DNA from: an uncultured Candidatus Saccharibacteria bacterium | Lineage (GTDB): Bacteria > Patescibacteriota > Minisyncoccia > Minisyncoccales > CAYJUL01 | Direction: 5' to 3' | Assembly (NCBI GenBank): GCA_964401295.1 | Contig: CAYNXX010000003.1 | Location: forward strand, 1-63,927 | DNA: 63,927 nt | Shown: in pieces, positions 45,173 through 62,109 of the stretch | Layout of the letters: every line of letters starts with the position of its first letter | Numbering within the stretch: the stretch's first letter is position 1 | Translations under genes and position numbers: made by a program | Notes under the pieces: generated by a model | Databases searched by the model: none | The model's input: the letters and a program-made list of their open reading frames with translations, nothing else | What the model was told of the DNA's origin: nothing

Positions 45173-45196
45173 AGGCCACGGAAAATTAATTCTTGA

Positions 45197-46231: not shown

Positions 46232-47840
46232 ATTTTATCACTCTTAGGGCATTTTCTTCTGCGCCTAATTGATGAGTAAAAAGATGGACTTCTGCTTGCT
46301 CTGGCGGTTCATAAGGATCGGATATGCCAGTGAAGTGCAAAATTCTGCCCAACCGCGCCTTTTGATAAAGTCCTTTAGTATCCCTTTTCTCGCATATTTC
46401 CAGCGGACAATCACAAAATACCTCTATAAATCTTCCGCCAGCCTCTTCTACTTTCTTTCTCACAAACGATCGCTGCTGGGCATAGGGCGAAATAAATGAA
46501 CAGACAACTGCAACTCCCCTTTTTGTAAATAATGCCGCGAGAGTTGCAACTCTTCTAATATTTTCATCGCGATCCGCTTTTGAAAATCCAAGGTCGCTGC
46601 TTAGATACTCTCTCGCATCATCTCCGTCTAAACGTTCAGCCGGCCATCCGGCTTCTTCAATGAAACGAAAAACATTATTTGCGATTGTTGTTTTGCCAGA
46701 CTGCGATAAACCCGTAAACCATAATACAAATCCCCCTTTTTTGCTCATGGCTGAAGACTGATACCATTGATCTATCAGCGGCTTTCGGCTGCAAGAAAGT
46801 AGATAGAAAATCTCCGGACGCAAAAGAAAAGAGGGCGGTTGCTCCTTTTTTTCAATTAAATCGCGCAGAAGGGTCGCGCTAAAAGATATATCATCGTTCG
46901 TGATGCATTCGCCAGCGAAACGATGCCGTTTTGCGCCGGAACACCACACCACTTCCGGAAACTTCAAAATTTCAATTCCCAATTCTTTTTTTGAGAAGCT
47001 GTCAAAAATCTGCTGAGCCGCGAACGGAAGATAATAATTGCCTACCCCTGCATGATCCCGCCCCACAATAAAATGAGTGCAGCCATAATTTCTCCGCACT
47101 AGAGCATGAAATACCGCTTCGCGAGGACCAGCATAACGCATTTTCAAAAATGCGACTGCCAAAATTGCTCGTCCTTGGGGATAATAATGGTCAAACAGCA
47201 TTTCGTAGCTCGCAAGAATATATTCGTCCTTAAAATCTGCAAGCTTCTTTCTCCCCACGATTGGCTGTAAAAAAAGTCCGTCTGTCACAGATAGCGCTTG
47301 CTGATGTAAAAACTCATGGCCCCGGTGCGGTACATTTCTCGTCTGAAACGCGGCTATTGTTTTCCATCCTTTTTCATGGAAAATCTTTTTTGTTTCGACG
47401 GGCCTAAAATAATATTCCCTAAATTCGTGAACTTCGGGCAAACTTATAGTTTCCAGCTCTCCACCCAATAAATAATTCTTCATCTGGACGAATTCGTCAA
47501 CTCCCGGATGCTTTCTGTCGGCGGTTCCAAAAATTAATCGCGCGCTGCGTTCTTTGTCATACTCGTAAATTTCGATATCCTTGAGCAAACCTATGATTTT
47601 AGATTCCTCATCCTTTAATAAAACCTCATCTTCTTTTTTAAGTCTATCCGCTGTTTGCTGGTCAATATCCAAAATAATCGGAATCGGCCATATCGCTCCG
47701 TTACTAAGCCGCATTTCGGTGCATACGCTTTCAAAATCCTTTTTCTTTAAAAATCCGGAAAGCGGCGCATATACACCGTCTTTAATATTTCTTAGCTCAT
47801 TTATTTTTTCTGCGCTCAACACGAGTTCTTCATGGGCCAT
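46203..47840 (-). CDS. sat/cysC: Bifunctional sulfate adenylyltransferase (ATP sulfurylase) / adenylylsulfate kinase, i.e. a PAPS synthase
   Basis: QTRNVPHRGHEFL and GRDHAGVGNYY (sulfurylase). The C-terminal domain has GLSQSGKTTIAN (P-loop) and FISPY (APS kinase). Confidence 0.9.
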   Translation of the reverse strand: MAHEELVLSAEKINELRNIKDGVYAPLSGFLKKKDFESVCTEMRLSNGAIWPIPIILDIDQQTADRLKKEDEVLLKDEESKIIGLLKDIEIYEYDKERSARLIFGTADRKHPGVDEFVQMKNYLLGGELETISLPEVHEFREYYFRPVETKKIFHEKGWKTIAAFQTRNVPHRGHEFLHQQALSVTDGLFLQPIVGRKKLADFKDEYILASYEMLFDHYYPQGRAILAVAFLKMRYAGPREAVFHALVRRNYGCTHFIVGRDHAGVGNYYLPFAAQQIFDSFSKKELGIEILKFPEVVWCSGAKRHRFAGECITNDDISFSATLLRDLIEKKEQPPSFLLRPEIFYLLSCSRKPLIDQWYQSSAMSKKGGFVLWFTGLSQSGKTTIANNVFRFIEEAGWPAERLDGDDAREYLSSDLGFSKADRDENIRRVATLAALFTKRGVAVVCSFISPYAQQRSFVRKKVEEAGGRFIEVFCDCPLEICEKRDTKGLYQKARLGRILHFTGISDPYEPPEQAEVHLFTHQLGAEENALRVIKFVKENLFNG

Positions 47841-48040: not shown

Positions 48041-50773
48041 CTATCCGCTAGGCGTAGACGATGCCTGATCAGCTCCGGCCGGCTGCGCGGCGCTAGTGCT
48101 TGTCGATTGGGAATCGTTTACAGTTGGCGATTGCGTAGAGCTCGTTGTGCTAACACCTGCAGCTGTTGTAGTTGCGTTCTCGCTTGCCACACCGCTAGTT
48201 GTGGACGTGGCAATAGATGTAGTGGTGATTGTAGATGTGGTTGTGGTTGTAGCGGTGGGAGTAGACGTAGCGGTGCCAAGCGAGATTATATCGCCGGTGA
48301 TCGTGACGCCGCTCTCCGCGCCGCCCGCAGCTGCGCCATCGGGCGCAGCTGCGGGCGCCAAAGCAGAACTGGTAGAGCTTGCCGAAACGCATTCGCCCTG
48401 AACCAGTGACCAAATGCCGTTTTCAATTTGCGCGCACCAGATTTTGCCGGTTGCCTTGTCAACCATTTCAAGACCTCCTACGCGCGCGGTCCTAGCGAAC
48501 AATTTATCAACCACAAGCTGGCGCAAAGACAAAACGCCATCTTTTATCGTGCCGCCGATGGCCGCCAAAAAATCTTCAAAACCACCCGCAGTACCGGTTA
48601 AGAAACCCTTCAACTGACTAAACAGCGACGCATCGCTGGAAGCGGAGCCAGAAGTAAGGGCATAATTGGAATTTTCCGTACTGCTCGACACAACAATGCC
48701 GATGCCCTGATATTCCTTGCCTTGATCGGTCGGCCAATTACGCCAGTCAAAACGAGGCGCGCTAAGCCGCCATGAAACTTCAAGCGGCTTGTCGCCGAAA
48801 ATAATCAGGCGGTTATTTGCCGGATCTTTTTTATAAGAAACCTTAGCGCCATCCTCGGCCGAGAGCAAAACGCTCAATAAATCCATCTTCTCTCCGAAAT
48901 CTGTAACACGTTTGAATACCCATAAATCAGAGCCTTTCTTGGTCTTATTAAAATCAATAACATAGGCAAATAATCCCTCTTCTAAGCTCGGCAAAAGCTT
49001 GGCATTGCCGGCAACTTCTTCTTTAAGGCCAAGCATACTTGGCCCATAAGTTGCGTAAAGTAAATTATCGATGCTGTACAGCGGGTCCTGAACGCCAAAA
49101 GTAATTTTTGAATTGGCGCCTCCGTCGCCGATTATCAAATTAGTCGTGCTGGCGCTGGTTACCGCGCTGATGGTAAATGCGCTGGTCGCGGAGCGCCACA
49201 TCCTGAGCGGATCAGTCGTCCCAAACTGAATAGCGCTTGAAGAAGCAATCGGCGAGCTGTCAGCAACCGTAAGCAATGTTCCAGGTTGTGTCGTGCCGAT
49301 ACCGACACGTTTATTGGTGCTATCGAAAGTAACATAAGGTGTATTGGTACTATATGTGGCGATCTGAAGAGAGGTCGTAGAATCAGTATCTTGTGGCCTA
49401 ATACGCCCTCCGGCTTTTATCATGAAATCTGGATTGCTATTAAACGCAAATTGGGCGGTGCCGCTAGTATCTCTAATATTAATAAATCCTGCAGCGCCCA
49501 TCTGAATGTAGAGGTTATCATTACTTCCTTGGTATATCCCCCCACCCGTTGGTGCGCTGACGTCAGCGCTATTTCTAAAACGGATCCCTCGATTCCCCGT
49601 CCAATCTCCGTTATCTAGGGCCAGAATTCCACCTACGATATCCAATTTTGCTGACGGTGCTATCGTCCCAATCCCGACTTTGCCGCCTAAGGTTGCGAGC
49701 GTTGTGGTCGCGGTAGTGATTGCGGTTCCAACAACATGCAAGGTGCTAGACGCCTGCGTTGTCCCGATGCCTAAACGATTGTTAGTGTTATCCCAAAAGA
49801 AGTTAGCATTGTTTTGAGCAATAACTCCGCTCACGCCGGCAAACAAAACAGAACCAGAAGTCAGCCCTGAAATAGTCGTGCTTGCGGTTGATAAGGTTCC
49901 TGCCGCAGTAACATTGCCCGAGGAATCAACAAGAAACTTCTGCGTACCATTCACCGCCGCTCCGAAAAGCGTCCAGCCTGCCGTGGCGTTGACCGGGTTG
50001 ATATAGATAGAGCCTTGCGATACGCCGGTGCCTGTCGGCAATGCGTCAAAGGTTATCAAACCGTCTGCATTGTCAGCAACGTCGCTTCGCAAAAATTGGG
50101 TTGAATCCAGATTATCCAATTTATCCGCATCAAACGCTGCGGGTGCGGCACCGAGTTTTTTGCGTGGAATCATTTCTGAATCAGAACCAACGGTAACGCC
50201 AAGCCACAAAGTTTGGCCGAAATCAATGCTCGCCAAACTCGTAAGAGTTCCCAGCATTGTTGAAAATAATCCGGATTTGGTATATATTTGGTTCGTAACG
50301 GTATCGCCATTTGACCAAGTGGAAAATGTGCTATAAACGCAGATAAAATTATTCGTTGTGTCAACCGATTTTATAACCGCGGACTCTTTTTTATTCGTAT
50401 CCCAGAGATATTGGCCTGCCGCCAAGGTGTTTTCGTTGGTGTTATTAGTGTATGCTACTTTGTCGTCGCCGCCACAGTTAGTTGCATCAGACTTAGTAAA
50501 AGTTATGTTTGTGTCTGTGAAAAGCGCGGATGCGATCCAAGATTCGGTCCAAATCGCGATTCCCCCGCCGGCCGCGGCGTAAAGCTTGAAAACCATATCC
50601 CGCGTCGCGTCCGCGACCGCCACTCCGGTTGAATCAGTAAGTTTGCCCTGATAATTTAGCTCGGGGTTGAAAGCGGCGCGCGAAATTTGATTGGCTCCAA
50701 AAATAAGTCCGCCAAATATAGCTACGACTACGACTAAAATTATTGTTATTTTATTTTGGAACCATTTTTCCAT
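48041..50773 (-). CDS. Large N-terminally anchored surface fibre protein with tail-fibre-like motifs and an S/T/A-rich tail
   Basis: N-terminal TM segment. It has three xxxGIGTxxxxxxLxV motifs (NNRLGIGTTQASSTLHV, GGKVGIGTIAPSAKLDI, NKRVGIGTTQPGTLLTV). The C-terminal 120 aa or so are low-complexity S/T/A. Confidence 0.6.
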   Translation of the reverse strand: MEKWFQNKITIILVVVVAIFGGLIFGANQISRAAFNPELNYQGKLTDSTGVAVADATRDMVFKLYAAAGGGIAIWTESWIASALFTDTNITFTKSDATNCGGDDKVAYTNNTNENTLAAGQYLWDTNKKESAVIKSVDTTNNFICVYSTFSTWSNGDTVTNQIYTKSGLFSTMLGTLTSLASIDFGQTLWLGVTVGSDSEMIPRKKLGAAPAAFDADKLDNLDSTQFLRSDVADNADGLITFDALPTGTGVSQGSIYINPVNATAGWTLFGAAVNGTQKFLVDSSGNVTAAGTLSTASTTISGLTSGSVLFAGVSGVIAQNNANFFWDNTNNRLGIGTTQASSTLHVVGTAITTATTTLATLGGKVGIGTIAPSAKLDIVGGILALDNGDWTGNRGIRFRNSADVSAPTGGGIYQGSNDNLYIQMGAAGFINIRDTSGTAQFAFNSNPDFMIKAGGRIRPQDTDSTTSLQIATYSTNTPYVTFDSTNKRVGIGTTQPGTLLTVADSSPIASSSAIQFGTTDPLRMWRSATSAFTISAVTSASTTNLIIGDGGANSKITFGVQDPLYSIDNLLYATYGPSMLGLKEEVAGNAKLLPSLEEGLFAYVIDFNKTKKGSDLWVFKRVTDFGEKMDLLSVLLSAEDGAKVSYKKDPANNRLIIFGDKPLEVSWRLSAPRFDWRNWPTDQGKEYQGIGIVVSSSTENSNYALTSGSASSDASLFSQLKGFLTGTAGGFEDFLAAIGGTIKDGVLSLRQLVVDKLFARTARVGGLEMVDKATGKIWCAQIENGIWSLVQGECVSASSTSSALAPAAAPDGAAAGGAESGVTITGDIISLGTATSTPTATTTTTSTITTTSIATSTTSGVASENATTTAAGVSTTSSTQSPTVNDSQSTSTSAAQPAGADQASSTPSG

Positions 50774-50797: not shown

Positions 50798-50818
50798 GTT
50801 TAAAGTGTCACTTTAAAC
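50798..50818. repeat. Perfect 21-bp palindrome GTTTAAAGTG-T-CACTTTAAAC, copy a
   Basis: Exact match to the copies at 54714, 59596 and 60472. Pairing extends to 50795-50821. It lies 25 nt upstream of the start codon at 50773. Confidence 0.9.
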
Positions 50819-52431
50819 ATTGGGGCGTCGTTTCTAGAAAGTTGCTGAATTAATCTTATTCGCGACGGCTTATCCTGTTGTCTGGTCGGCGGGATTTGCG
50901 CCGATGTTAAGATTGATCTTTGGGGCGTTGACCGCGCAACGGCCCGCACTTGCGCCGGTGCCTGCGGCATATGTGCAGTCTGAATAGCGGGTCGGCGCAG
51001 GATCGGCTGATGCGCAGATGGCGCCTGTGACGCGGGCGCCGCTTTATTACGCAATTTTTTTAATTTTTTCGCGGCGAGCAATAAAATCAGCAATAGTAAT
51101 ATATATGGAAGCCATCGCCAGATTCCCGGGCGAACCGGCTGTGGCGCTGGTGCCATAGCTGCCAGCAAAATCTCTATTTCCCCTGCCATGCGTTTTCTGA
51201 CCTGATTTTTAAAATCCATCACGCTGATGTAAAGCGGATAAGTTATTGGGCTATCGGGTGGAAAAATTCTTGCCTCGTATGCGGTTTTATCACCATTGAT
51301 GCGCAAAATAAAGGAAAATAATCTTCTCGTTGCCAGCGCCTGAGCCAGCGAAGCCTGCTGATTTTCCAATCCACTCTGATCTGTAGATTTGACATCTGCA
51401 TTACGGTCCTGCGGTTTTTCCAAAGTAACCAGTATGGTTTTTAAAACTTTCGGTGCTTTTTCATAGGCAAGTTTTACCGTAATCGGTGGACCTATCTGCG
51501 CCTGTACTTTTCCCTCGATCATCGGCAAACGTTTTCCTTCCTGCCAGAATTCAAAATCGGATAACTGCAGCGCTTTAAGTTCGGGCAGAATCCCTGCGGT
51601 TGGCGGAAAAAGTTCGGGGGGCACAGTTGTCGGCGCGCCGGGCGTGGCGAACGCGATCGCGCCAGATGCATACTTGCCAGATTTATCATAGGCGAAAGCC
51701 GTATAATAATAACCCACGCCGTTGATCAAACCATTATCAACAAACGATTCGCCATTAGAATTATAGATAACTTCGCCGTCGTAGAGATCCTGTGGATAAA
51801 AGAAAGTGCTGCGCAAAATTCTCACTCCTTTGAAATTTGGATCCTTCGGATTTTGCCAGGTTAAATTTACCTGCCCATCGCCGGCCACCGCCTGGAAATT
51901 TTGCACGTTTGGCGGTGGCGCTGGCACAAATAATGTTCTAAAGGTTTTATCCGTGGTAAAGCCCAACCTGTTTTTGTTATCTCGCGCTTCAATCTTGAAG
52001 TGATATAAAGTGTCTTGGTTTAAATCTATAAGCGCAACCGAGTGTTCGGTGGAAGGTTTTATTTCGGCAATCGTTTCAATTTCATATTCGGCGGTGCGTC
52101 CCAAGAAAAATTGTGAAATAGCCGGCTTTGACGTTTTCCAAGAAATAATCGCGCTGTTATAACTTGGCCTTACAACAATATCCGTGATACGCGGGGGAAA
52201 TATATCCACGAATCCTCCTCCCGGGATGGACACAGGACAATCCGTAGGACAGTTCGTTGAGTTTTCTCCCGACTCGCAAATACCATTGCCGCAGACTGGC
52301 CCGACAACACTAGCTACGACATCTTGCGTAATAATCACTTTGTCCGAAGTTAAATCAGCGCTCGTTTCTGAAAACCCCGTCAACGAAGCCGCAAATGCAA
52401 ATATTAAAATGTAAATCAAGATCTGCTTCAT
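50800..52431 (-). CDS. Secreted/anchored protein with FN3-like domains, a C-terminal TM segment and a P/Q/A-rich tail
   Basis: Signal peptide, Cys knot CGNGICESGENSTNCPTDC, FN3-like PPPNVQNFQAVAGDGQVNLTWQNP...YYYTAFAYD, TM segment WLPYILLLLILLLAA. The last 6 codons and the stop lie inside palindrome copy a. Confidence 0.65.
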   Translation of the reverse strand: MKQILIYILIFAFAASLTGFSETSADLTSDKVIITQDVVASVVGPVCGNGICESGENSTNCPTDCPVSIPGGGFVDIFPPRITDIVVRPSYNSAIISWKTSKPAISQFFLGRTAEYEIETIAEIKPSTEHSVALIDLNQDTLYHFKIEARDNKNRLGFTTDKTFRTLFVPAPPPNVQNFQAVAGDGQVNLTWQNPKDPNFKGVRILRSTFFYPQDLYDGEVIYNSNGESFVDNGLINGVGYYYTAFAYDKSGKYASGAIAFATPGAPTTVPPELFPPTAGILPELKALQLSDFEFWQEGKRLPMIEGKVQAQIGPPITVKLAYEKAPKVLKTILVTLEKPQDRNADVKSTDQSGLENQQASLAQALATRRLFSFILRINGDKTAYEARIFPPDSPITYPLYISVMDFKNQVRKRMAGEIEILLAAMAPAPQPVRPGIWRWLPYILLLLILLLAAKKLKKLRNKAAPASQAPSAHQPILRRPAIQTAHMPQAPAQVRAVARSTPQRSILTSAQIPPTRQQDKPSRIRLIQQLSRNDAPMFKVTL

Positions 52432-54686
52432 TTGGTCTTTGCTGGATTTTGATTGGAATTTTGATCCGGACTTGGCGCCGTCAATTTTTCGGCATCAGCC
52501 TTCAATTTATCTGCGTAAAACGGGTAAACCTCGATCGCCTTTTGATATATATCTTTGGCCGTATTTTGATCCCCGAGCTGCCCGAAAAGCCAGGCCGTTG
52601 CTTCAAAAAATGTAATCTCTGGGCTGGCTTCCTGACGCATACGCGCTATGGTTTCGGGACTAAATCCCGGTAATTGTTTCAATAATTCTTTAACCCCGCC
52701 CATCCTCTCTGTGTATTTGAGCTCAATTCCGTTTTTAAAGTGCTCCGCGGCTTTCTGTGATTGACTAGAGCGCAGGTATACGATACCCATAATTCTTTGC
52801 ATTTCAAAAGCATCTTGAGGTCTTTGTAATGAAAGTTGATAGCCGCGGTTAAAATACTCTTCGCCTTTGGCGTAATCTCCTTCATAGATGTAAAAACGGC
52901 CCAAAATATAATAGTATTGCAGCCATTGTTTGTTAAAAGCCAGGGCCTTTTTTGATATATCCTCTCCTTCGCGCAGAAAATCTTTATTTTGACTGACCAG
53001 ATAGAGCCATTCGTCAGATCTAGCGGCAGCTTCATAGAAATTAAGGTACCTTATCTCCGGCTGATCCAAACTTTTCAGCAGTTCCGGCCGGAACTGCGCA
53101 AGATTTTCCAAGATTTCTTTTTGCCATTGGCCGCCGGCCTGCTGATCAAGAACTGTAAGATCGCGCCCGACCATATTAAGAAGGATTTCTCTTCTGTACT
53201 GAGTGGTGCGATCCATGGCGCGCTGGTAATACTTAAGCGCGCCCGGAAAATCTTTCTGTTCCATAAAAAATCCACGCACCGTATCATAGCTTGCGAGGAC
53301 CGATTTTACATTGACAAAATATATGCTTAAAATCGCCAATGGCAGAAACGCTATAATGATTGCCTGTTTTAACGGCGCCAGATTCACTGGGAAACGCCGC
53401 TCGACGAAATAATTATTATTAACAAAGGCAAGTACGAGAAATAAAACAAGATAAGTGCTAAGAGTATCAAATGCAAAAATATTCTGTAAAAAATATGAAA
53501 TAAATAACGATATTAAGAGGAAAGTCGGAAGCTCCCCCATTTTTTTCCTACCACGCCATAAAGCCGCGAAGGCTAAAACTAGAATTAAAATATAACTTAA
53601 TGCGCCAACCATTCCGGTCTCGGCCATAAAATTTAAAATCTCATTATGCGCATCGCTAAAAACGTAATAAGCCTGAATATATTGCTGATAACGAGCTTCG
53701 AAATATTTGTAATAAAGATAGTTGAAAGATTCGGCGCCCCAACCAAATATAGGTCTGTCGCGCCATGCTTTGATCGCTGTTTCCCATCCTGGGAAACGAC
53801 CCATTATGCTGGCCGGATTAAATCCCTGCAAGAATCTAGCGCCTAACGATCCTTGTTTAAAAAGGATTTTTGATTCAAACACAATAAGCAAGAGCAATAA
53901 AATGCTTATTGCCAATGCGCCGATTAAAATATATTTTCTGAGGTTTTTTCTTGAATTAAGAAGCGGTAGGAAATAGAAAAAACCCGTTATTGCAAGCCCC
54001 AATAAAAGACCCAGGAGCGCAGACCTCCCGCCAGACAAGAAAAGAGCGACTGCTTCAAGTGCGGCAAGCGCAAGCCAGACATTTCTTAAAATTTTTTCCT
54101 TTTCAACGGCAGCAAGATATAAAGCCAGAAAAATAGTCATTGCCAGAAAAAAACCGAAATAAACTGGATTGGAAAGAGTCCCGCTTATTCTGCCCGTCTG
54201 AATACCCACCCCGTAAAATCCAGCTATGCCTAGTTTTTGGACGAATCCAGCTAAGGTGGAAACAAAACTTATCAGCACTATTGCGCGCAAAGGAAACAAC
54301 CAACTATTATATGTCTGGAAAAGACCTGATGCGATTACAAAAAAAACTAAATAATGCAAAATTGTCACAAGGCCGCCACCACCCTCTAAACTTCCCCAAA
54401 AACTTCGTATAATGTTAAATCCAGTGATAGAAGATATAAGCATTGCGGCGAAAAATATCAGTAACATGCCCGTCAATAAGGTAAATTTTGGGGCATAACG
54501 GCTATCTATTAACAGCAAGATCAGATATAAAATTGCCACCACCTCAACTGCGGTTCTAAAATATATGGTTTTTGGATATTCCGAGAAAGATAAACCGAAT
54601 GGTCCCAAAACCAATGGCGCGAATAAGGTAATAAAAATCCCTATTTTTGCGGCTTCGAAAATATATTTTTTAATATTCTTCTCCAT
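52428..54686 (-). CDS. Second O-antigen ligase family (Wzy_C) membrane protein with C-terminal TPR repeats
   Basis: SGGRSALLGL and DAHNEILNFMAETGMVG motifs, with the same architecture as 37069-39336. ATGA overlap with the downstream FN3 gene. Confidence 0.8.
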   Translation of the reverse strand: MEKNIKKYIFEAAKIGIFITLFAPLVLGPFGLSFSEYPKTIYFRTAVEVVAILYLILLLIDSRYAPKFTLLTGMLLIFFAAMLISSITGFNIIRSFWGSLEGGGGLVTILHYLVFFVIASGLFQTYNSWLFPLRAIVLISFVSTLAGFVQKLGIAGFYGVGIQTGRISGTLSNPVYFGFFLAMTIFLALYLAAVEKEKILRNVWLALAALEAVALFLSGGRSALLGLLLGLAITGFFYFLPLLNSRKNLRKYILIGALAISILLLLLIVFESKILFKQGSLGARFLQGFNPASIMGRFPGWETAIKAWRDRPIFGWGAESFNYLYYKYFEARYQQYIQAYYVFSDAHNEILNFMAETGMVGALSYILILVLAFAALWRGRKKMGELPTFLLISLFISYFLQNIFAFDTLSTYLVLFLVLAFVNNNYFVERRFPVNLAPLKQAIIIAFLPLAILSIYFVNVKSVLASYDTVRGFFMEQKDFPGALKYYQRAMDRTTQYRREILLNMVGRDLTVLDQQAGGQWQKEILENLAQFRPELLKSLDQPEIRYLNFYEAAARSDEWLYLVSQNKDFLREGEDISKKALAFNKQWLQYYYILGRFYIYEGDYAKGEEYFNRGYQLSLQRPQDAFEMQRIMGIVYLRSSQSQKAAEHFKNGIELKYTERMGGVKELLKQLPGFSPETIARMRQEASPEITFFEATAWLFGQLGDQNTAKDIYQKAIEVYPFYADKLKADAEKLTAPSPDQNSNQNPAKTK

Positions 54687-54742: not shown

Positions 54743-55501
54743 TTAATTTGGCGTGGCTGTTACGATTATCATAGCTGTATAAGTTCCTGCTGTTTGAGTA
54801 TTGGCGGATCCAGACATTGCCTCTACTTTAATAGTTGTATTGGTGCCGGACGGCTGATTTGCAAAGAGCGAATTGGAAATATTTACGTCTGAGGTGGCAA
54901 AATTATACCAGCAAGCATCCGACGTATTACCAGAACCAACTCCGCATGTTGAACCATTATCAAGGAACTTTTGAACAACATCGGTTCCTTCGGGCGTAAA
55001 TCCGAATTCAGAAGTATTGTTGGCAATAGAAAAGCTAAAATCAGACGTTCCGGATTGAGCCGGCGTATAATCGGCAAAACTATTCCCTCCGCTTTTAAGC
55101 GCTGGCGCCGTAGAGGCCCGCGCAGTAAGCGTATAACCAGCCAAATTGTCGGTTATAACGGTCCAGCTGGCGGATCCTGTGGCCGCTCCCCCGCCTATAC
55201 CTGGAATAACCTGAGACATAGTGATATCCGGAGGCGCACTGATGGAAATAAAGGTTTCAGCCATTTGTTGATAACCAGATTTTATTTTATAATTCGCGCT
55301 TTGCGATTCATCGCTGCCTATTTCACCGATTGTATCTTTGCTTAAATAACTTGATGATTTTTGATCAATGCCTCCTATATTTATTGAATCTGATGGTATG
55401 CGATAATTTTGGCTGGACATAAAAGCCAAAACGGGATTTACCGCAAAAAAAGCGGAAATCCCGAATAAAAGTGATATAAATGTGGTGATAGTTTTGTTCA
55501 T
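54743..55501 (-). CDS. Secreted surface protein, paralogue of 56670-57347 (WxL-like by architecture)
   Basis: Signal peptide and N-terminal SxNYxI...SANYKI motifs. Blocks shared with the paralogue include ITMSQVIPGIGGGAATGSASWTV, FADYTPAQSGTSDF, FLDNGSTCG...DACWYNFAT and GTYTAMIIVTAT. Confidence 0.5.
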   Translation of the reverse strand: MNKTITTFISLLFGISAFFAVNPVLAFMSSQNYRIPSDSINIGGIDQKSSSYLSKDTIGEIGSDESQSANYKIKSGYQQMAETFISISAPPDITMSQVIPGIGGGAATGSASWTVITDNLAGYTLTARASTAPALKSGGNSFADYTPAQSGTSDFSFSIANNTSEFGFTPEGTDVVQKFLDNGSTCGVGSGNTSDACWYNFATSDVNISNSLFANQPSGTNTTIKVEAMSGSANTQTAGTYTAMIIVTATPN

Positions 55502-55557
55502 TGCATATATGTTGTAAACACGTTGTAGACATTATCTTAGAGACTGCACGCAGAGAC

Positions 55558-55586
55558 TTGACATAGAATATGGGGGGGGGCATTAT
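55558..55586 (+). promoter_or_regulatory. Promoter-like element with a G9 homopolymer inside the 17-bp spacer
   Basis: TTGACA (55558-55563), spacer TAGAATATGGGGGGGGG (G9 at 55572-55580), CATTAT (55581-55586). Confidence 0.3.
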
Positions 55587-55655
55587 CAAAATGAAGGCTC
55601 TTGACGCAAAAGTGGCTTAATTTTTACTGTGGGCTACCGATGCGCGGGTCTTCAT

Positions 55656-55690
55656 CCTCCGACTGCAATCGGAGGGTTTATTTTATTTTT
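55656..55690 (+). terminator. Plus-strand intrinsic terminator inside an all-minus-strand gene array
   Basis: CCTCCGA-CTGCAA-TCGGAGG followed by GTTTATTTTATTTTTT. On the minus strand no U-run follows. Confidence 0.45.
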
Positions 55691-56666
55691 TAAATTTTAT
55701 TTCTATCTTGCGCAATAATAAAATAATTATAAATACTATTAAAATTATTGCCGCGAGGCCAACAGCCATGATTTTCCAGGGAACCACCCAAAAATCAACT
55801 TCTTTTTGGTCAATAATATTCTCATATCCCCTGTTTAAACTTAGCGTTGCCGTATAACGTCCCCAAAGCCAGGGCTTATCCCACGTAATCTCGCGCGTCC
55901 GCAAAGAGGTCGGCATTGAGAAAAAAGAATCAACGGGCGCTTCTCCTACCTCTTTACCTAAAAGATTTTTTATTTTGATTGCGCCGTATGGCACAACGTG
56001 AATACTACCGTCATTTTGGTAGGCCAAACTGAAAGAGATCGGTCCTTTTGAATAAAATCTCGCCTGATTTGTAAGTTTAAAACTTTTTAAATAAGCATTC
56101 GCTTGCACTTCGCCGTTCACTCTTACAAAAAATAAACTGGCAATACGAGTTTTCACCGTAACGCTTCCGCTGACATTTTCTGCATTTTCTGTGCTCGTGG
56201 CTCCAGGATTGGTAGATACCAGTATTGCTCCATATCTTCCACCCGGTTCTGCGTCTGACGGCACGTTGACACTTACCTTAAAATTAATTCTCTGGCCGTG
56301 AGCCAATGTAAACTCCGTTATTTCCGGCTTTAAATAATCTTTAAGAGAATAGAGACCCTTTTGATCGCCCAAAAGAACAACTGTCTGCGTCGGATCATAC
56401 GAACCGGTAAAATCTTCTGTTTGTATTTTAAAACTCATCGTCCTGCCCAGTCTATTCATAACGTAAAAATCTTTCACTGCGCTTTCGCCAGGATTTAAGA
56501 AGAATTCGTTTCTCGTTGGACCGACAACAAAATCATTAAGATTGGTGGGTACATCGGGAACTCCCTCTATGCTGTATGCCAAAATAGACGGCGCGCCAAA
56601 AAACATACCGCTTAATATCAACAGAGAACCAATGAAAAATATTTTATTTTTGGTCCAGATGCGCAT
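55683..56666 (-). CDS. Two-domain beta-rich surface protein with a C-terminal TM anchor (DUF916/DUF3324-like architecture)
   Basis: Signal peptide and two Ig-like-looking halves (FLNPGESAVKDFYVMN..., PSDAEPGGRYGAILVS; second half ...GRYTATLSL...FWVVPW). It ends in a C-terminal TM segment plus a basic tail, LLRKIEIKFKK. Confidence 0.5.
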   Translation of the reverse strand: MRIWTKNKIFFIGSLLILSGMFFGAPSILAYSIEGVPDVPTNLNDFVVGPTRNEFFLNPGESAVKDFYVMNRLGRTMSFKIQTEDFTGSYDPTQTVVLLGDQKGLYSLKDYLKPEITEFTLAHGQRINFKVSVNVPSDAEPGGRYGAILVSTNPGATSTENAENVSGSVTVKTRIASLFFVRVNGEVQANAYLKSFKLTNQARFYSKGPISFSLAYQNDGSIHVVPYGAIKIKNLLGKEVGEAPVDSFFSMPTSLRTREITWDKPWLWGRYTATLSLNRGYENIIDQKEVDFWVVPWKIMAVGLAAIILIVFIIILLLRKIEIKFKK

Positions 56667-56669
56667 AAT

Positions 56670-57347
56670 TTATGGGTTATCCGTTGCCGTAGCAGTAATC
56701 TGACTCTGATATGTTCCGGATGTCTGCACTTTTGTTGCTCCGGTTTGCGCCCTGAATTTTATAACCTCGGCTTCTCCGCTTGGAGAGGTAGAGGCAGAAC
56801 GATTAATAACCGTGTAGCCAGCAGTGGCAAAACCAAGCCAGCAGGTATCCGTTCCGGCACTTGCGCCAGTACCGCAGGCACTACCATTGTCCAAAAATTT
56901 CGCAACTGTATCCGCGGCAGTCTGGGCTTCAACTGTATAGCCGAAAGCAGAGGCGGCTGAAGCAACGGTGAAAGCATAATCCGGCGTACCGGACTGCGAT
57001 GGACTATAATCCGAAAAACTATCCGTACTGCTGTGTAAGGCCGGCGTTGAACTGGAATTGGCAAGGCTAAAACTGAATCCTGTGCCGTTTGCGGTTTTGA
57101 CGGTCCACGTACACTGACCCGTAGCCGTGCCGCCACCAAGACCAGGAAGGGTTTGCGACATCGTAAAATTAGCGCAGTCGGTAATGGATATTGCCGAACT
57201 TACCACTTGCGTTATGACAACCGCATCGCTCGCGGTCGCGCCGGCGAGATATTCCGGCTCAAAAAGAATCCCGCTGCCAAGGATAAGAAGCAATAATGCG
57301 AAAGAAATGCTTAATACTTTTGAAATGCCTAATATTTTTATTGTCAT
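56670..57347 (-). CDS. Secreted surface protein, paralogue of 54743-55501 (WxL-like by architecture)
   Basis: Signal peptide; FTMSQTLPGLGGGTATGQCTWTV, FSDYSPSQSGTPDY, FLDNGSACG...DTCWLGFAT, GTYQSQITATAT. Confidence 0.5.
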   Translation of the reverse strand: MTIKILGISKVLSISFALLLLILGSGILFEPEYLAGATASDAVVITQVVSSAISITDCANFTMSQTLPGLGGGTATGQCTWTVKTANGTGFSFSLANSSSTPALHSSTDSFSDYSPSQSGTPDYAFTVASAASAFGYTVEAQTAADTVAKFLDNGSACGTGASAGTDTCWLGFATAGYTVINRSASTSPSGEAEVIKFRAQTGATKVQTSGTYQSQITATATDNP

Positions 57348-57369
57348 ATTTTATTTTTAATTTTTAAAT

Positions 57370-58317
57370 TTAGTTTTTCAGCGGAACCATCATATATATA
57401 TAGCTCTGCTGAGCGACTTCGCGGAAAATCGGACGGATAATCCCAGATGTTTCATCTTGCGGTTCAATCGTGACCTCATCAGAAAAAGATTTTGAAAGTT
57501 TATCTTTTAACACTTTATCCTTATCGCTTGACGGCACCACCACCAATCCTTCTTTGCTGCCGGTAATGCGGGTGATGCCCACGTCTTCTCTGAAAGTATC
57601 AAAGCGTTGTTGAATATCATTTATAATTCCCTGCTCCAGCTGATTTGTCTGATTCACGGCATCTCCGGTTGCTAGCAAGTTATTTTGTGTCGGCGGTGGC
57701 GATTTTCCGAAAACGAGAGATTTGGCGCTATTGAAAATATTTTTAATACTCTGCCAAAAACTTGAAGCATCGGCCAAAGCATTTGTCTCACTGATAGAAC
57801 CGGTAAGATTTATTACGCTTGCAATGATACGTTGCAAATTTTCTATTTCCAGCCTCCCATAATTTTGGACAGTATTTCCCGTTGGCACTAATGAATGGTT
57901 GTTGGCATATGGAATCGCGACCCATATCCCAAACAGAATAATCGTCAATAAAATTGCTGCGCCAATGTGTATTAATGGATTAATCGTTTTAAGCAGTCCG
58001 GCGGTATTATATTGTAAATTCGGCTCGCCGACCGGTAAATTTATCGGCGGATATGATTCCAGTTTCTTAATGATTTTAGGTTGTAAAGAAATCTCCATCA
58101 ATGTTTGTTTCTTTATGCTTTTCGTTTCCGGCGCATACATTCCAATTGTTTTAATATATTCTTTTAGCCACTCTTCCGTAGTTACCCAATTTCTGCCAAT
58201 TTTTACTGATTTCAATTTTCCTTGCCGCGCGCGCAAACTTAAATATTCCTGCGAATAATCGCATTGACTAGATGCTTGCGTAAGAGAAATATATTTTATA
58301 TTTTTTATATTTTCCAT
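57370..58317 (-). CDS. Membrane-anchored protein with an N-terminal excisionase/MerR-type helix-turn-helix
   Basis: YISLTQASSQCDYSQEYLSLRARQGKLKSVKIGRNWVTTEEWLKEY (HTH_17-like), one TM segment (IGAAILLTIILFGIWVAI), and an extracytoplasmic C-terminus of about 170 aa. Confidence 0.5.
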   Translation of the reverse strand: MENIKNIKYISLTQASSQCDYSQEYLSLRARQGKLKSVKIGRNWVTTEEWLKEYIKTIGMYAPETKSIKKQTLMEISLQPKIIKKLESYPPINLPVGEPNLQYNTAGLLKTINPLIHIGAAILLTIILFGIWVAIPYANNHSLVPTGNTVQNYGRLEIENLQRIIASVINLTGSISETNALADASSFWQSIKNIFNSAKSLVFGKSPPPTQNNLLATGDAVNQTNQLEQGIINDIQQRFDTFREDVGITRITGSKEGLVVVPSSDKDKVLKDKLSKSFSDEVTIEPQDETSGIIRPIFREVAQQSYIYMMVPLKN

Positions 58318-58466: not shown

Positions 58467-59555
58467 TTAATGAGTTTTTATACTTTGCAGAATTCCCAAT
58501 GCAACATAGTTCATTATCAGCCCAGATCCGCCATAACTGACGAATGGCAAGGGAATGCCAACTACCGGGAAAAGACCTAAATTCACAGCTATATTGAGAA
58601 AAGACTGCGAAGCCAAAACAATAACAAAACCAACCGCAAAAAGTCTAACAAAATTATTTGATGCCGTAATTGCTATATGCAAAATACGCCACCAAAGTAA
58701 TAAAACCAGGATTAGAAGAACGCTCACGCTCAAAAAACCGAATTCTTCAGCAATAGAGGCGAAAATGAAGTCGGTTTGGTTTTCTGGTAAAAAACCGTAC
58801 TGGGTTTGTGGCCCCTGACCAAAACCGCGCCCAAATAATTCGCCAGACCCAACGGCTATTTTAGATTGAGCCTGCTGCCAACCAATCCCTAAATAATCTT
58901 TTTGTGGATAAATAAAGGTTAAAATCCTTTCTTTCTGATAATTTTTAAGGACGAAAAACCAGCTAAGACTAAAAATAATAATAAATAAAGTACACAATAA
59001 TAAAAAATGCTTAATTTTTATACCAGATGCAAATAAAATACCTATCCACATGCTTCCTAATATTAAAATCTGGCCAATATCCGGACGAAGAAAAATTAAT
59101 ATGGCTGGTATGCCAATATATATTCCTGATATAAATATATGCCTTAAATTGTAAAGCTCAATATGCCTTTGGGAAAAATATTTAGCTAATAATAAAATTA
59201 TAATTATTTTCATCGGTTCGGCTGGATCTAATGAAAATGAACCTATTTTGTACCAGCTTTTTGTTCCCCTAATTTCTGGCACTAAAAAAAATAATCCAAT
59301 AAGCAAAAAAATGCCAATGATATAAGAAAATAAAATAAAAAATGATTCATTCCGTAAAAATCTCCAGTCGGAAAATCCAATCATTATCATTAAAATAATT
59401 CCAGATATGAAAAAAAATAATTGTTTTTCGAAATTAATAAAATTATTAATTCTTAAAGATGAGCTATAAATGGAAATTAATCCAAAAAAAACCAAAAATA
59501 TAGGAATAATTATTATTCCGGGGTCAAATTTTTTAACAGTTTGAATAAGATTCAT
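58467..59555 (-). CDS. SEDS family peptidoglycan polymerase (FtsW/RodA/SpoVE)
   Basis: 10-TM pattern, ...QTDFIFASIAEEFGF..., PLPFVSYGGSGLI. Confidence 0.9.
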   Translation of the reverse strand: MNLIQTVKKFDPGIIIIPIFLVFFGLISIYSSSLRINNFINFEKQLFFFISGIILMIMIGFSDWRFLRNESFFILFSYIIGIFLLIGLFFLVPEIRGTKSWYKIGSFSLDPAEPMKIIIILLLAKYFSQRHIELYNLRHIFISGIYIGIPAILIFLRPDIGQILILGSMWIGILFASGIKIKHFLLLCTLFIIIFSLSWFFVLKNYQKERILTFIYPQKDYLGIGWQQAQSKIAVGSGELFGRGFGQGPQTQYGFLPENQTDFIFASIAEEFGFLSVSVLLILVLLLWWRILHIAITASNNFVRLFAVGFVIVLASQSFLNIAVNLGLFPVVGIPLPFVSYGGSGLIMNYVALGILQSIKTH

Positions 59556-59646: not shown

Positions 59647-60393
59647 TCAAGATAGTTCGATAAAAATAGGATCTGTGTGGTATTTTTTCTTCTCTAGATA
59701 ATTTTTGGTTAATTTTTTGAGTTCCTCATTTGTTAAGGCTATGCCGCCGGCGAAACAATCATTTATCCATTGGCGCTCACCCATCAAAAGAGATGTTCTA
59801 GCCCCAAACAGGTCTTGGAAGCTGGAATAAGGATACTGTTCCAAAAAATCAAAAAAATCGTTCCATTCTCCCACTCCAAGCTTTTTCCAATCCGGTTTCC
59901 AAACATCTATTGCGTTTTTAATGTTTATATAAAATATTAGCCTTGCCAACTGAACATCATCCTTACATAATACCAACCTATATGGTCGTTCAAAAACATT
60001 TCCAGTTCTGTGATGTTTATTATTGAAATATTTTGAAAAAGCTGTTTTCATTTTTTGTGTATATTTGGAAATACCATTTTTAGTATAGGGAGAGACAAGC
60101 AAATGGAAATGATCACGGACCAATATAAAACTCAATATATTTACCAATGGAGGATGTTCTCTGGTAATTAGATTCTTCTGTGGTTCTAAACCGTTTAATA
60201 TTGCATGGACAGCCCTAGTAGTGTCTTCTCTATATATATTAAGATTTGGTCTGCCTATATTTGCGGCATACATATAAAATAAAAAGCGGTCTCGATCAGC
60301 CTCATTATCAAAAACTGCCTTAGAGTCTATGCCCCTATTATAGATATGATAAAAGGCTCCTTTTTTAAAAATAGAATTTCGCGAGATAGACAC
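59647..60393 (-). CDS. IS200-like Y1 (HUH) transposase family protein, RAYT-like
   Basis: FYHIYNRGIDSKAVFDNEADRDRFL..., HUH-type DHFHLLV, ...HRTGNVFERPYR..., ARLIFYINIKNAI (the YIHxNP-like region). The gene is flanked on both sides by the palindrome. Confidence 0.65.
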   Translation of the reverse strand: MSISRNSIFKKGAFYHIYNRGIDSKAVFDNEADRDRFLFYMYAANIGRPNLNIYREDTTRAVHAILNGLEPQKNLITREHPPLVNILSFILVRDHFHLLVSPYTKNGISKYTQKMKTAFSKYFNNKHHRTGNVFERPYRLVLCKDDVQLARLIFYINIKNAIDVWKPDWKKLGVGEWNDFFDFLEQYPYSSFQDLFGARTSLLMGERQWINDCFAGGIALTNEELKKLTKNYLEKKKYHTDPIFIELS

Positions 60394-60562: not shown

Positions 60563-60961
60563 CTAGAAGGTTATCTCTAGGGCGCGACTAACTTCTTTAT
60601 AATAACCTACGGAACGCAAAATTACAGGACCCGTTTGGACAAGCGTAACTTGGTAACAAACGTCTTCTTTGTCTTGAAGACCGATCGGGCAAGTTGTGGC
60701 TCCTCCGCCATTGCCATTCATATCTATAAACCCGGCGTAAGTAAAACCTGCGCCTTGTGTTGAATAATTCTTTTCATAAAGATCTCTCTCAATACCACTA
60801 TCGGCTGCATATAAACTTATGGTTGAAAAACCAATTGTTTTAAGAAGCTGGAGCTGTCCAAAAATAATCGTAGCAACGCCAAGCGCAATCGCCAATAAAA
60901 CCGCCAAAAACGCTAAAGCCAGATACAAAGATACACCTTTTTGCGAGTTAAAATAAAGCAT
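60563..60961 (-). CDS. PilX-N-like minor pilin / pseudopilin-like protein
   Basis: N-terminus QKGVSLYLALAFLAVLLAIALGV resembles the PilX N-terminal segment. Small beta-rich body. Last gene of the pilin-like triplet. Confidence 0.4.
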   Translation of the reverse strand: MLYFNSQKGVSLYLALAFLAVLLAIALGVATIIFGQLQLLKTIGFSTISLYAADSGIERDLYEKNYSTQGAGFTYAGFIDMNGNGGGATTCPIGLQDKEDVCYQVTLVQTGPVILRSVGYYKEVSRALEITF

Positions 60962-60967
60962 TATTAA

Positions 60968-61546
60968 TTATTGCGCTAGGTTTAAATCTCTTTGACTTAT
61001 AGTGGATTGCACATAAACCGATGCTTGTTCTTCATATCTCTGGCCAACTCTTTGCACCTGCAGTAAAAAAGTTACGCGCGGCTGAAGCAAGCCTTGATCT
61101 GCCACAGCTGCTCCATTAAGCATCAGTTTAAAACTCAAGACCTTTAAAGAGGAGCCGGTTATTATATTTTCTGTACCAGCCCGCGATTCTTTAAGCTTAC
61201 CTACGGTTTGGTCTAGAAAAATTTCTTCGCATTCCTGACGATCGTTGATAAATTTTATGCCCAAGCCATCGCGGCTAAGTTCGTAGTTTGTTCCGGCCGC
61301 GGATAGACAACTGGCATCCGAAGCTTTCTTAGCCGTTCTCAAAGATCTTGAAATATATTCTGTAACATAACTGACTTGATCCAAAAGTTCTTGCCGGACT
61401 AAAATTTTTCGCTGAATGCGTATGGCAAAGATAAAAAGGCCGGCAACCATCGTGGTGACGATCGCGAAGACAGCCACACTCACCATAAGTTCAATCAGGG
61501 TAAAGCCTTTTTTTCTGCGTTGAACTGCTAGGTTTGTCATCTCCAA
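60968..61546 (-). CDS. Prepilin-type N-terminal cleavage/methylation domain protein (PilW/GspJ-like minor pilin)
   Basis: KKGFTLIELMVSVAVFAIVTTMV class-III signal. Confidence 0.75.
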   Translation of the reverse strand: MEMTNLAVQRRKKGFTLIELMVSVAVFAIVTTMVAGLFIFAIRIQRKILVRQELLDQVSYVTEYISRSLRTAKKASDASCLSAAGTNYELSRDGLGIKFINDRQECEEIFLDQTVGKLKESRAGTENIITGSSLKVLSFKLMLNGAAVADQGLLQPRVTFLLQVQRVGQRYEEQASVYVQSTISQRDLNLAQ

Positions 61547-62109
61547 TTATATAAAATTTCTTTGGCTACAAATTTATTAGTCTGCCCGCGTTCATCCCAA
61601 CTAACAGTAACGGTTATCTCAAGTTTATCCCATGGCTTCGTTAAAACAGTTTTTACGCTGCTAATAGTTCTTTTAAAATTAGTCTGTTTTCCGCCGATAT
61701 AATAACTGTAAAATCCATTGCTATCCAGAGTTAAGTAAGTGCTGGCAAGAGCCGGGTCGCAAGGGGTGGCCGACTCAACCATGGTGTAATCTATGCCGCA
61801 GTCCGCGGCCGTACCCCCATTCCAATTATCATCAATAAGCCAGTGATAATCCCTGACATTTCTCATCAACTCCAGACCCTCTTGCGCAAGATAAACGGCG
61901 GTTAGGCGCGAAGAAAGCATATTGGAAATGGAAAGACTTTGATTTACAAGCGCAAAAACGCCTACGACTCCGATCACAAGCACAAAAGTTGCGGCTATAA
62001 CTTCAATAATAGTAAAACCGTAAGGTGATTGTTTAAACATTTTTATTTTTGACAAGCCGGGTCCGCGCAAACAACAAGACCTATGATACTCAGCAGCTGA
62101 TCCATCCAA
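61537..62109 (-). CDS. Prepilin-type minor pilin (PilV/GspI-like)
   Basis: SPYGFTIIEVIAATFVLVIGVVGV class-III signal. The real start is most likely the ATG at 62040 (MFKQSPYGFT), 2 nt after the upstream stop. Confidence 0.7.
   Translation of the reverse strand: MDGSAAEYHRSCCLRGPGLSKIKMFKQSPYGFTIIEVIAATFVLVIGVVGVFALVNQSLSISNMLSSRLTAVYLAQEGLELMRNVRDYHWLIDDNWNGGTAADCGIDYTMVESATPCDPALASTYLTLDSNGFYSYYIGGKQTNFKRTISSVKTVLTKPWDKLEITVTVSWDERGQTNKFVAKEILYNWR

Follow-up and report, generated by a model that had tools for sequence, protein, structure and literature searches.

We propose, with moderate confidence, that a minus-strand gene cassette in a 63,927-nt stretch of DNA from an uncultured Candidatus Saccharibacteria bacterium (contig CAYNXX010000003.1, assembly GCA_964401295.1; the whole stretch is hereafter 'the window') is the core of an usher-less pilus or fibre of Parcubacteria-type bacteria of the candidate phyla radiation (CPR), assembled by chaperone-assisted donor-strand exchange. 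Two secreted proteins of 225 and 252 amino acids (aa), S225 and S252, would form the shaft and the tip, and a protein with fibronectin type III (FnIII) domains and a transmembrane (TM) segment, fn3-TM, would be the anchor. Between the S225 and S252 genes lies that of a membrane-anchored 327-aa protein, our candidate chaperone, which is a remote relative of the WxLIP (WxL-interacting) proteins of Firmicutes. The cassette is likely related, remotely and in simplified form, to the Pam pilus that Candidatus Mycosynbacter amalyticus was found in 2026 to have (Troman et al., bioRxiv 10.64898/2026.03.03.709456). A donor-strand pilus of CPR bacteria is therefore already on record, which a first-pass annotation of the window, working from the sequence alone, had no means of knowing. 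The analysis itself shows the homologies, folds, membrane topologies, synteny and co-variation reported below.

The cassette recurs as a unit. Species-representative genomes were scanned, and of the 117 relatives that came up, 80 loci were retained; synteny counts take only loci with enough flanking sequence. The order that recurs in about 70 CPR genomes is S225-type gene, WxLIP-like gene, S252-type gene, fn3 gene and a gene for a large secreted protein, with a helix-turn-helix (HTH)-TM gene optionally at the head (a homologue lies within 44 of 68 loci) and a small HTH gene optionally before the large gene. Both flanking small paralogues are present in 67 of 70 loci. An S225-type gene, usually in one copy and occasionally in more, stands directly upstream of the chaperone-like gene in 71 of 73 loci, and an S252-type gene directly downstream of it in 76 of 77. 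The fn3-TM gene follows downstream in 67 of 69 loci and the large gene in 33 of 52. The first-pass annotation had drawn four minus-strand open reading frames (ORFs), from the HTH-TM gene to the S252 gene, with gaps of 22, 3 and 181 nt; positions, order and gaps all agree with the ORF listing. It closed the cassette too early, at position 54743: the conserved unit runs on downstream through the fn3-TM and large genes (Table 1). It had also named a failure of the genes to co-occur elsewhere as grounds for giving up the idea of a complex, and co-occurrence proved near-universal across other genomes. Existing models leave the cassette unannotated, with all components called 'hypothetical' and all scores below cut-offs.

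Locus labels are nearly all Patescibacteria/CPR (Paceibacterota, Nealson-, Jackson-, Falkow-, Magasanik-, Zambryski-, Taylor-, Kaiser-, Campbell- and Nomurabacteria, Minisyncoccia). The label 'uncultured Ca. Saccharibacteria' is carried by 35 metagenome-assembled genomes (MAGs), all from one third-party annotation (TPA) series, and may be generic. Three loci (L024, L036, L044) place a CPR cassette on MAGs labelled Nanoarchaeia or Gammaproteobacteria, which are probably mis-binned or mislabelled.

Table 1. Positions of the cassette genes and of elements within them, in window coordinates
Feature	Position	Strand	Remarks
315-aa HTH-TM protein	57370-58317	-	from the ORF listing
S225 (225 aa)	56670-57347	-	secreted pilin-like subunit of one domain, N-terminal extension short; candidate shaft
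S225 residues 42-53, AVVITQVVSSAI	57189-57224	-	candidate donor strand; N-terminal extension outside the domain shared with S252
WxLIP-like (DUF916-type) protein (327 aa)	55683-56666	-	two immunoglobulin (Ig)-like domains, C-terminal TM anchor; candidate pilus chaperone
327-aa protein residues 151-173	56148-56216	-	candidate strand-donating hairpin; predicted local distance difference test (pLDDT) score 62-75 vs >90 elsewhere
9-bp GC-rich hairpin	55654-55677	-	right after the 327-aa gene stop; opens the 181-nt spacer
S252 (252 aa)	54743-55501	-	secreted PamT-like subunit; candidate tip or adaptor
S252 residues 27-82	55256-55423	-	triple repeat S.NY.I..DS.N.GG / Y..DTIGE..G / SYK.K.GYQQM
Wzy_C + TPR membrane protein (752 aa)	52428-54686	-	accessory, outside the conserved core
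fn3-TM protein (543 aa)	50800-52431	-	candidate pilus terminator and membrane anchor
fn3-TM residues 31-42, KVIITQDVVASV	52306-52341	-	strand like the S225 N-terminal extension
Large secreted repeat protein (910 aa)	48041-50773	-	N-terminal INYQGKLT

The AlphaFold2 monomer model of the 327-aa protein (pLDDT 92.4, predicted template modelling score 0.80) begins with a leader helix (residues 5-23). Two domains, each a beta-sandwich, span residues 32-183 and 191-294, and after a C-terminal helix (297-320) the chain ends in the tail RKIEIKFKK. This bears out the signal peptide, two beta-rich halves, C-terminal TM segment and basic tail that had been read from the sequence. Homologues number 716, all from CPR/Parcubacteria where the source is named, and 80 of 81 relatives have the C-terminal TM segment. 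At family level the protein is confirmed as a remote DUF916/WxLIP relative. PF06030 (WxLIP_PGBD, formerly DUF916) is matched by 54 of 67 aligned family members (best E=3.7e-9), and the family profile aligns with the solved Enterococcus faecium WxLIP1 (PDB 9i1y, 9i25; E=2.2e-5, profile 45-176 on chain 21-150). Foldseek places WxLIP chains first (E ~1e-11), then Vibrio cholerae RbmA (1.5e-10), then the chaperone-usher chaperones CfaA, CsuC, DraB, Caf1M, FimC, CupB2 and SafB (1e-9 to 1e-7). Because the window protein alone has no PF06030 match, it counts as a remote WxLIP member by virtue of its family. In the profile alignment with WxLIP1, the motif NQIDKxxxYFDLK, conserved in WxLIP, is not kept.

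The first-pass annotation had recognised a DUF916-DUF3324 architecture, and only the DUF916 part of that call is found at sequence level. PF11797 (DUF3324, WxLIP_HBD) is matched by none of the 67 family members, though the second beta-sandwich is present in the AlphaFold2 model. The Foldseek alignments, 271-283 columns long for WxLIP chains of 251-267 residues, take in both domains. None of the 67 members matches PapD_N or PapD_C (PF00345, PF02753), and an NCBIfam scan of the family matched no family. Sequence matches to PilE entries in the PDB (E ~0.3) were dismissed as chance. Residues 151-173 form a variable, low-confidence loop running into a long conserved strand (SR.G.LFFVRV). The loop is a candidate strand donor by analogy with Firmicute WxL clusters, in which AlphaFold2 predicts a DUF916 hairpin completing the WxL sandwich (Hassan et al. 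2023, PMC10599100). P0252, P0242 and some 15 of the 150 top representatives are proteins of 520-600 aa in which a WxLIP_PGBD part runs into an entire S252 unit, leader included. Either the fusions are genuine or they stem from stop read-through in gene calling (alternative code or frameshift).

The two small proteins are paralogues, as had been claimed. S225 and S252 are 46% identical over 178 residues (E=8e-50), and homology between their families extends across about 170 columns (hhalign probability 100, E=4e-55). The shared domain begins at residue 50 of S225 and residue 82 of S252, and one alignment contains all the conserved blocks on which the claim had been based: ITMSQ..PG.GGG.ATG..WTV, F(S/A)DY(S/T)P.QSGT.D(Y/F), FLDNGS.CG.G.....D.CW with its Cys pair, and GTY....I..TAT. 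S252 aligns with the NCBIfam model (NF058579) of PamT, proposed as the tip pilin of the Pam pilus, over nearly its whole length (E=4.2e-10, residues 9-251 on model positions 7-239 of 241), and 62 of 62 S252-family members match that model full-length at sub-threshold scores (best E=1.3e-15). Judged by these alignments, the S252 family is a distant PamT relative and not a PamT equivalog.

In the AlphaFold2 model of S252 the beta domain (80-252) has pLDDT >90. Its weak fold matches (E 0.02-0.3) are enriched in chaperone-usher pilin domains: PapG (probability 0.80), CS20, PapE, PapA and FimG. Matches to the jelly-roll of infectious bursal disease virus VP2, TasA and ENA are likewise weak (E>=0.02) and were not taken as evidence of membership. 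Sequence searches of the PDB with S252, the S252-family profile and the S225-family profile found nothing; S225 alone matched nothing in Pfam or NCBIfam, and the small-protein scans found no sequence homology to fimbrial-subunit families. Neither small family has a C-terminal TM segment (0 of 67 for S225). The C-terminal length is fixed in both: in 79 of 83 and 30 of 38 sequences, 14 residues separate the Gly of the final G-x-Y from the C-terminus, and an alternating strand, Y.A.I.V.A, follows that motif. This resembles the conserved C-terminus of PapD-dependent pilins and serves as a lead.

A profile search of 1.84 billion cluster representatives found 2221 S252 relatives at E<=0.001. Some long relatives carry DUF2341, ConA-like lectin or FnIII domains ahead of a complete S252 unit, the same layout as in FimH and other tip adhesins and in 'long WxL' proteins. 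The N-terminal 55-aa repeat region of S252 has near-invariant columns yet an AlphaFold2 pLDDT below 50. In the long relatives it sits between the lectin-like N-terminal domains and the pilin-like domain. A hidden Markov model (HMM) of the repeat motif is specific to the S252 family; a search with it for copies in the large protein or elsewhere in the window was negative. The S225 family has an unusual conserved leader of its own. A near-invariant Glu-Pro directly follows the N-terminal hydrophobic helix (residues 28-41 region), and an A-x-A-like site comes about nine residues later. The S252, chaperone-like and fn3 proteins do not have this signature.

The fn3-TM protein consists of a signal peptide, an N-terminal strand, a Cys-rich module, two FnIII domains (residues 85-173 and 167-256; Pfam fn3 E=2.1e-6), a C-terminal TM segment and a tail. 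The TM segment is found in 59 of 66 complete fn3 proteins. Its N-terminal strand (DKVIITQDVVAS) resembles the stretch of about 11-14 residues between leader and shared domain in S225 (DAVVITQVVSS). To score this likeness we compared the S225 12-mer with the best 12-mer of the fn3 N-terminal region in 66 genomes, using 5000 permutations. The mean score was 17.4 within genomes and 13.3 across genomes (0/5000 permutations), with z=7.9, a value inflated because the permutations ignore the relatedness of the genomes. Control comparisons of the S225 12-mer with the N-termini of the WxLIP-like protein (z=-2.3) and of S252 (z=-0.1) were null.

The motif classes shift in parallel in S225 and fn3-TM: VVITQ with VVITQ, DVSLTV with DVSIDI, QFTVKQ with QFTVKQ, TETLSV with TSTLGV, and FEIHQ with FEVHQ. 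Among the 72 residues that are identical within 13 well-matched pairs, 48 have different codons in the two genes, so the likeness is kept at the peptide level and gene conversion, at least of recent date, is ruled out as its source. Hydrophobic residues alternate in the shared motif as they do in a beta-strand. One strand co-evolving in two unrelated proteins is what a common acceptor groove would predict, by analogy with the major subunit and terminator of chaperone-usher pili. The homology of the S252 family to PamT and this co-variation support the donor-strand pilin idea raised in the first-pass annotation.

Assembly might proceed as follows. All components, which have N-terminal hydrophobic leaders, would be exported by Sec. 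The 327-aa protein would stay in the membrane by its C-terminal helix, and its two Ig-like domains would hold fresh subunits by lending them a beta-strand. S252 would begin the fibre as tip or adaptor, in keeping with its PamT homology. S225 would then polymerise, each N-terminal strand (residues ~42-53) inserting into the preceding subunit. Finally, fn3-TM would cap the base and tether the fibre, as its architecture and the co-variation suggest.

The best-surviving alternative is a non-polymerising complex of the WxL type, in which the WxLIP-like protein would permanently hold one or two small proteins by strand complementation and serve as an adhesion or docking platform with no filament. 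One WxLIP with two WxL proteins is the commonest type of WxL cluster, accounting for 98 of 179 (Hassan et al. 2023, PMC10599100), and the arrangement here is the same. The 327-aa protein is homologous to WxLIP in sequence and structure, the small protein comes in short and long versions as WxL does, and the solved entry 9i25 is a WxLIP bound to a long WxL. The small proteins do not fit: none of 62 S252-family members has the WxL Pfam domain at E<=0.1, no W-x-L occurs in either small protein (as had been noted from the sequence), and the top 50 fold matches of S252 do not include the WxL chain of 9i25. The earlier call of a WxL/DUF916-like surface complex thus holds for the middle protein and fails for its partners. 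S252 is moreover homologous to PamT, a component of a proven filament system, and a static assembly leaves the co-varying strand of fn3-TM and S225 unexplained. We judge this alternative unlikely, though far from negligible.

Less probable still, and in our view improbable, is that the motif shared by S225 and fn3-TM is a processing or sorting signal, such as a site for a SipW-like signal peptidase or a glycosylation sequon, and that a fibre forms by another route, for example chaperone-free as with TasA. A substrate motif tracking its enzyme would also co-vary between genomes. S225 has its near-invariant Glu-Pro and an unusually long post-helix region, a TasA fibre is among the weak S252 fold matches, and a Wzy_C-family gene lies inside the operon in some genomes. 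Against this, the Glu-Pro is missing from the fn3-TM and S252 leaders, the shared motif alternates as a beta-strand would, the chaperone-like gene lies universally between two subunit genes, and the conserved block showed no gene for a signal peptidase.

It is scarcely credible that these are ordinary secreted or substrate-binding lipoproteins, or an unrelated envelope scaffold lying by chance near FtsW/RodA: that gene (58467-59555) adjoins the cassette in the window and in several loci, but these are only a few against a near-universal internal gene order, no lipobox Cys follows the leaders, and Pfam and NCBIfam scans returned no substrate-binding-protein family. A substrate-binding lipoprotein identity, which the first-pass annotation had listed as a possible refutation for the small proteins, was rejected on the last two counts.

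Several points weigh against the donor-strand pilus. Every strand insertion, the order of subunits and the filament itself are deduced from genes and monomer models. The co-variation, besides its inflated z-score, could come from a shared processing or sorting signal. S252 scores 39.4 bits against PamT, far below equivalog level (cut-off 240), and 22.1 bits (E=1.3e-4) against Pam_pilin_C (NF058581; cut-off 55), a model matched by 5 of 62 S252-family members. The S225 family barely meets a Pam model at all (Pam_pilin_C, 1 of 32). Foldseek found no PDB match to the S252 model at E<=0.001, and the 327-aa sequence alone has no match in Pfam or NCBIfam (PF06030: none at E<=1). The cassette has no counterpart of the two-domain major pilins PamA and PamB, which consist of a nine-strand N-terminal domain, a donor linker and a C-terminal domain. 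The pilus model also leaves the S252 repeat and the large INYQGKLT protein unexplained.

Homologues of the large protein range from the 910 aa of the window to about 1900 aa elsewhere, have no TM segment, and in 47 of 53 cases carry exactly INYQGKLT just past the leader. Neither Pfam nor NCBIfam contains a family for it; its sole match is phrog_5906, of unknown function, and a 'tail-fibre-like' label could not be confirmed. It may be a distal fibre or an adhesin. The invariance of INYQGKLT parallels that of the S252 repeat, so the large protein and S252 might dock.

At the other end of the cassette, the 315-aa protein has a divergent N-terminal HTH_17-like domain, one hydrophobic TM segment (~113-140, by sequence) and a C-terminal domain of about 170 aa. 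The full protein has no match in Pfam or NCBIfam. In a set of ten sequences, the N-terminal 70 aa of the window protein and nine homologues, eight match HTH_17 below threshold (E 1e-4 to 0.07), with matches that span essentially all of the 51-residue model. The protein may be a membrane-bound regulator of the operon. Its homologues sometimes have two or three tandem HTH copies. In many loci, small HTH_17-only genes (80-146 aa), akin to its N-terminus, lie between the fn3-TM and large genes (for example L025 11310-11561, L037 4512-4778, L023 3993-4433).

The hairpin after the 327-aa gene stop lacks a U-tract in the coding-strand sense. In L003, the closest locus, a hairpin of other sequence occupies the corresponding position (~3490-3520). 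A spacer of at least 150 nt between the chaperone-like and S252 genes is found in only 7 of 76 loci. The hairpin may set expression of the chaperone relative to S252. The 181-nt spacer as a whole was rejected as a structured RNA, with a folding z of -1.0 vs shuffles, no Rfam match and poor conservation with related loci.

The 752-aa inserted protein combines Wzy_C (O-antigen-ligase family, E=2.8e-18) with TPR, and its gene stands between the S252 and fn3 genes only in the window, L003, L010 and L015. It is a candidate glycan ligase or polymerase by domain content. Further downstream (39264-47840, minus strand) lie genes for a bifunctional sulfate adenylyltransferase/adenosine 5'-phosphosulfate kinase, a sulfotransferase, a GDP-mannose-dehydratase-like epimerase and five glycosyltransferases. 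Speculatively, the Wzy_C-TPR protein and these genes for 3'-phosphoadenosine 5'-phosphosulfate supply, sulfation and glycosyl transfer would make a (sulfated) glycan that decorates the fibre or the envelope. Extra density was reported on a PamA serine (Troman et al., bioRxiv 10.64898/2026.03.03.709456).

Upstream of the FtsW/RodA gene is a minus-strand ORF of 248 aa (59647-60393) with an IS200-like Y1 transposase domain (E=6.5e-7). Beyond it lie type IV (pseudo)pilin-like genes (60563-62109, minus strand, possibly to 63923) with the prepilin N-terminal methylation motif and a PilV-like protein. L001 has a matching type IV pilin-like arrangement plus a prepilin peptidase. With these genes a few kb upstream of the cassette, the genome would encode two different filament systems next to each other.

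Attachment to host cells is believed to be the way of life of CPR bacteria, yet to our knowledge few of their surface structures have been identified so far. The cassette appears to be a simpler Pam relative conserved across many Parcubacteria-type lineages. At the level of sequence it connects the Pam-type chaperone role with the DUF916/WxLIP proteins of gut-dwelling Gram-positive bacteria, and thereby suggests strand-donating chaperoning as a mechanism for WxL clusters, which have been linked to virulence (Hassan et al. 2023, PMC10599100). The co-varying strand supplies concrete residues for mutation, 42-53 of S225 and 31-42 of fn3-TM. More tentatively, and with rather less than an even chance of being right, the WxL complexes of Firmicutes and the Pam pili of CPR bacteria may share a single origin, an ancient chaperone system, membrane-anchored and usher-less, that served donor-strand assembly in bacteria lacking an outer membrane. 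The Parcubacteria-type cassette may be the missing link, since it pairs a genuine DUF916/WxLIP homologue with PamT-type pilin-like subunits. If such common ancestry is true, WxLIP proteins in general would be assembly chaperones and not host-binding anchors, and the present family, with its 2221 subunit cluster representatives, would be a major unannotated pilus type of Parcubacteria. The Pam preprint makes no mention of DUF916 or WxL (Troman et al., bioRxiv 10.64898/2026.03.03.709456). Nor do Hassan et al. (2023) connect WxLIP with a Pam-type chaperone role, and a literature term search found no paper tying WxL or WxLIP to donor-strand or chaperone-usher assembly.

Three known systems resemble the cassette in part; in its way of working it would be close to the Pam pilus and, less closely, to chaperone-usher pili. 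Like classical and archaic chaperone-usher pili (Pap, Fim, Csu, CFA/I, Caf1), it has a chaperone-like protein with the two-Ig-domain chaperone fold, subunits made of a short N-terminal strand and one beta domain, a terminator-like protein (fn3-TM) bearing the subunit strand, and long S252 relatives in the lectin-plus-pilin layout of tip adhesins. Unlike in those systems there is no outer membrane, the chaperone is membrane-anchored and the pilin fold match is weak (E 0.02-0.3). No usher was found among the neighbouring window genes scanned. Because it has neither an usher nor a PapD sequence signal, the cassette is not a chaperone-usher system.

The WxL clusters of Lactobacillales and Bacillales encode a WxLIP (PF06030, PF11797 and a TM segment) with short and long WxL proteins (Hassan et al. 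2023, PMC10599100). The cassette shares with them a WxLIP-homologous middle protein with signal peptide, two Ig-like domains and C-terminal TM segment; one such gene accompanied by two small secreted paralogues; a partner whose short and long versions share the C-terminal domain; and strand complementation, the proposed mode of WxLIP-partner binding. It differs in partners that have neither WxL domain nor motif, in a DUF3324 undetected by sequence, in belonging to CPR bacteria and not Firmicutes, and in its extra conserved components, the fn3-TM anchor and the large protein. WxL systems are also thought to be peptidoglycan-bound complexes and not filaments. Because it has no WxL domain, the cassette is not a WxL cluster.

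The Pam pilus is reported mainly from Saccharimonadia and Microgenomatia, whereas cassette genomes carry Parcubacteria/Paceibacteria-type labels. Its chaperones, PamC and PamD, have a PapD/FimC-like fold and a C-terminal TM helix, and its tether, PamR, has an FnIII (RbmA-like) domain, an N-terminal strand and a C-terminal TM segment (Troman et al., bioRxiv 10.64898/2026.03.03.709456). The cassette has one chaperone gene in place of two, and no ATP-synthase neighbourhood was seen in the loci examined. Unlike the two-domain Pam pilins, S225 has a single domain with a short N-terminal extension, as do classical chaperone-usher pilins. The window contains no larger paralogue, and larger relatives exist in other genomes. 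Because scores fall far below cut-off and PamA/PamB-type pilins are missing, the cassette does not belong to the curated Pam families. The two systems are nevertheless alike in being CPR-restricted and usher-less, with secreted pilins whose C-terminal domain is an Ig-like acceptor. S252 is homologous to PamT, remotely but over the full length, and similar to it in size (25.6 kDa), and a large fibre-like protein is encoded nearby. The 327-aa protein, with its two-domain PapD/FimC-like fold and C-terminal TM helix, matches PamC and PamD by description, as fn3-TM, with its FnIII domains, N-terminal strand and C-terminal TM segment, matches PamR.

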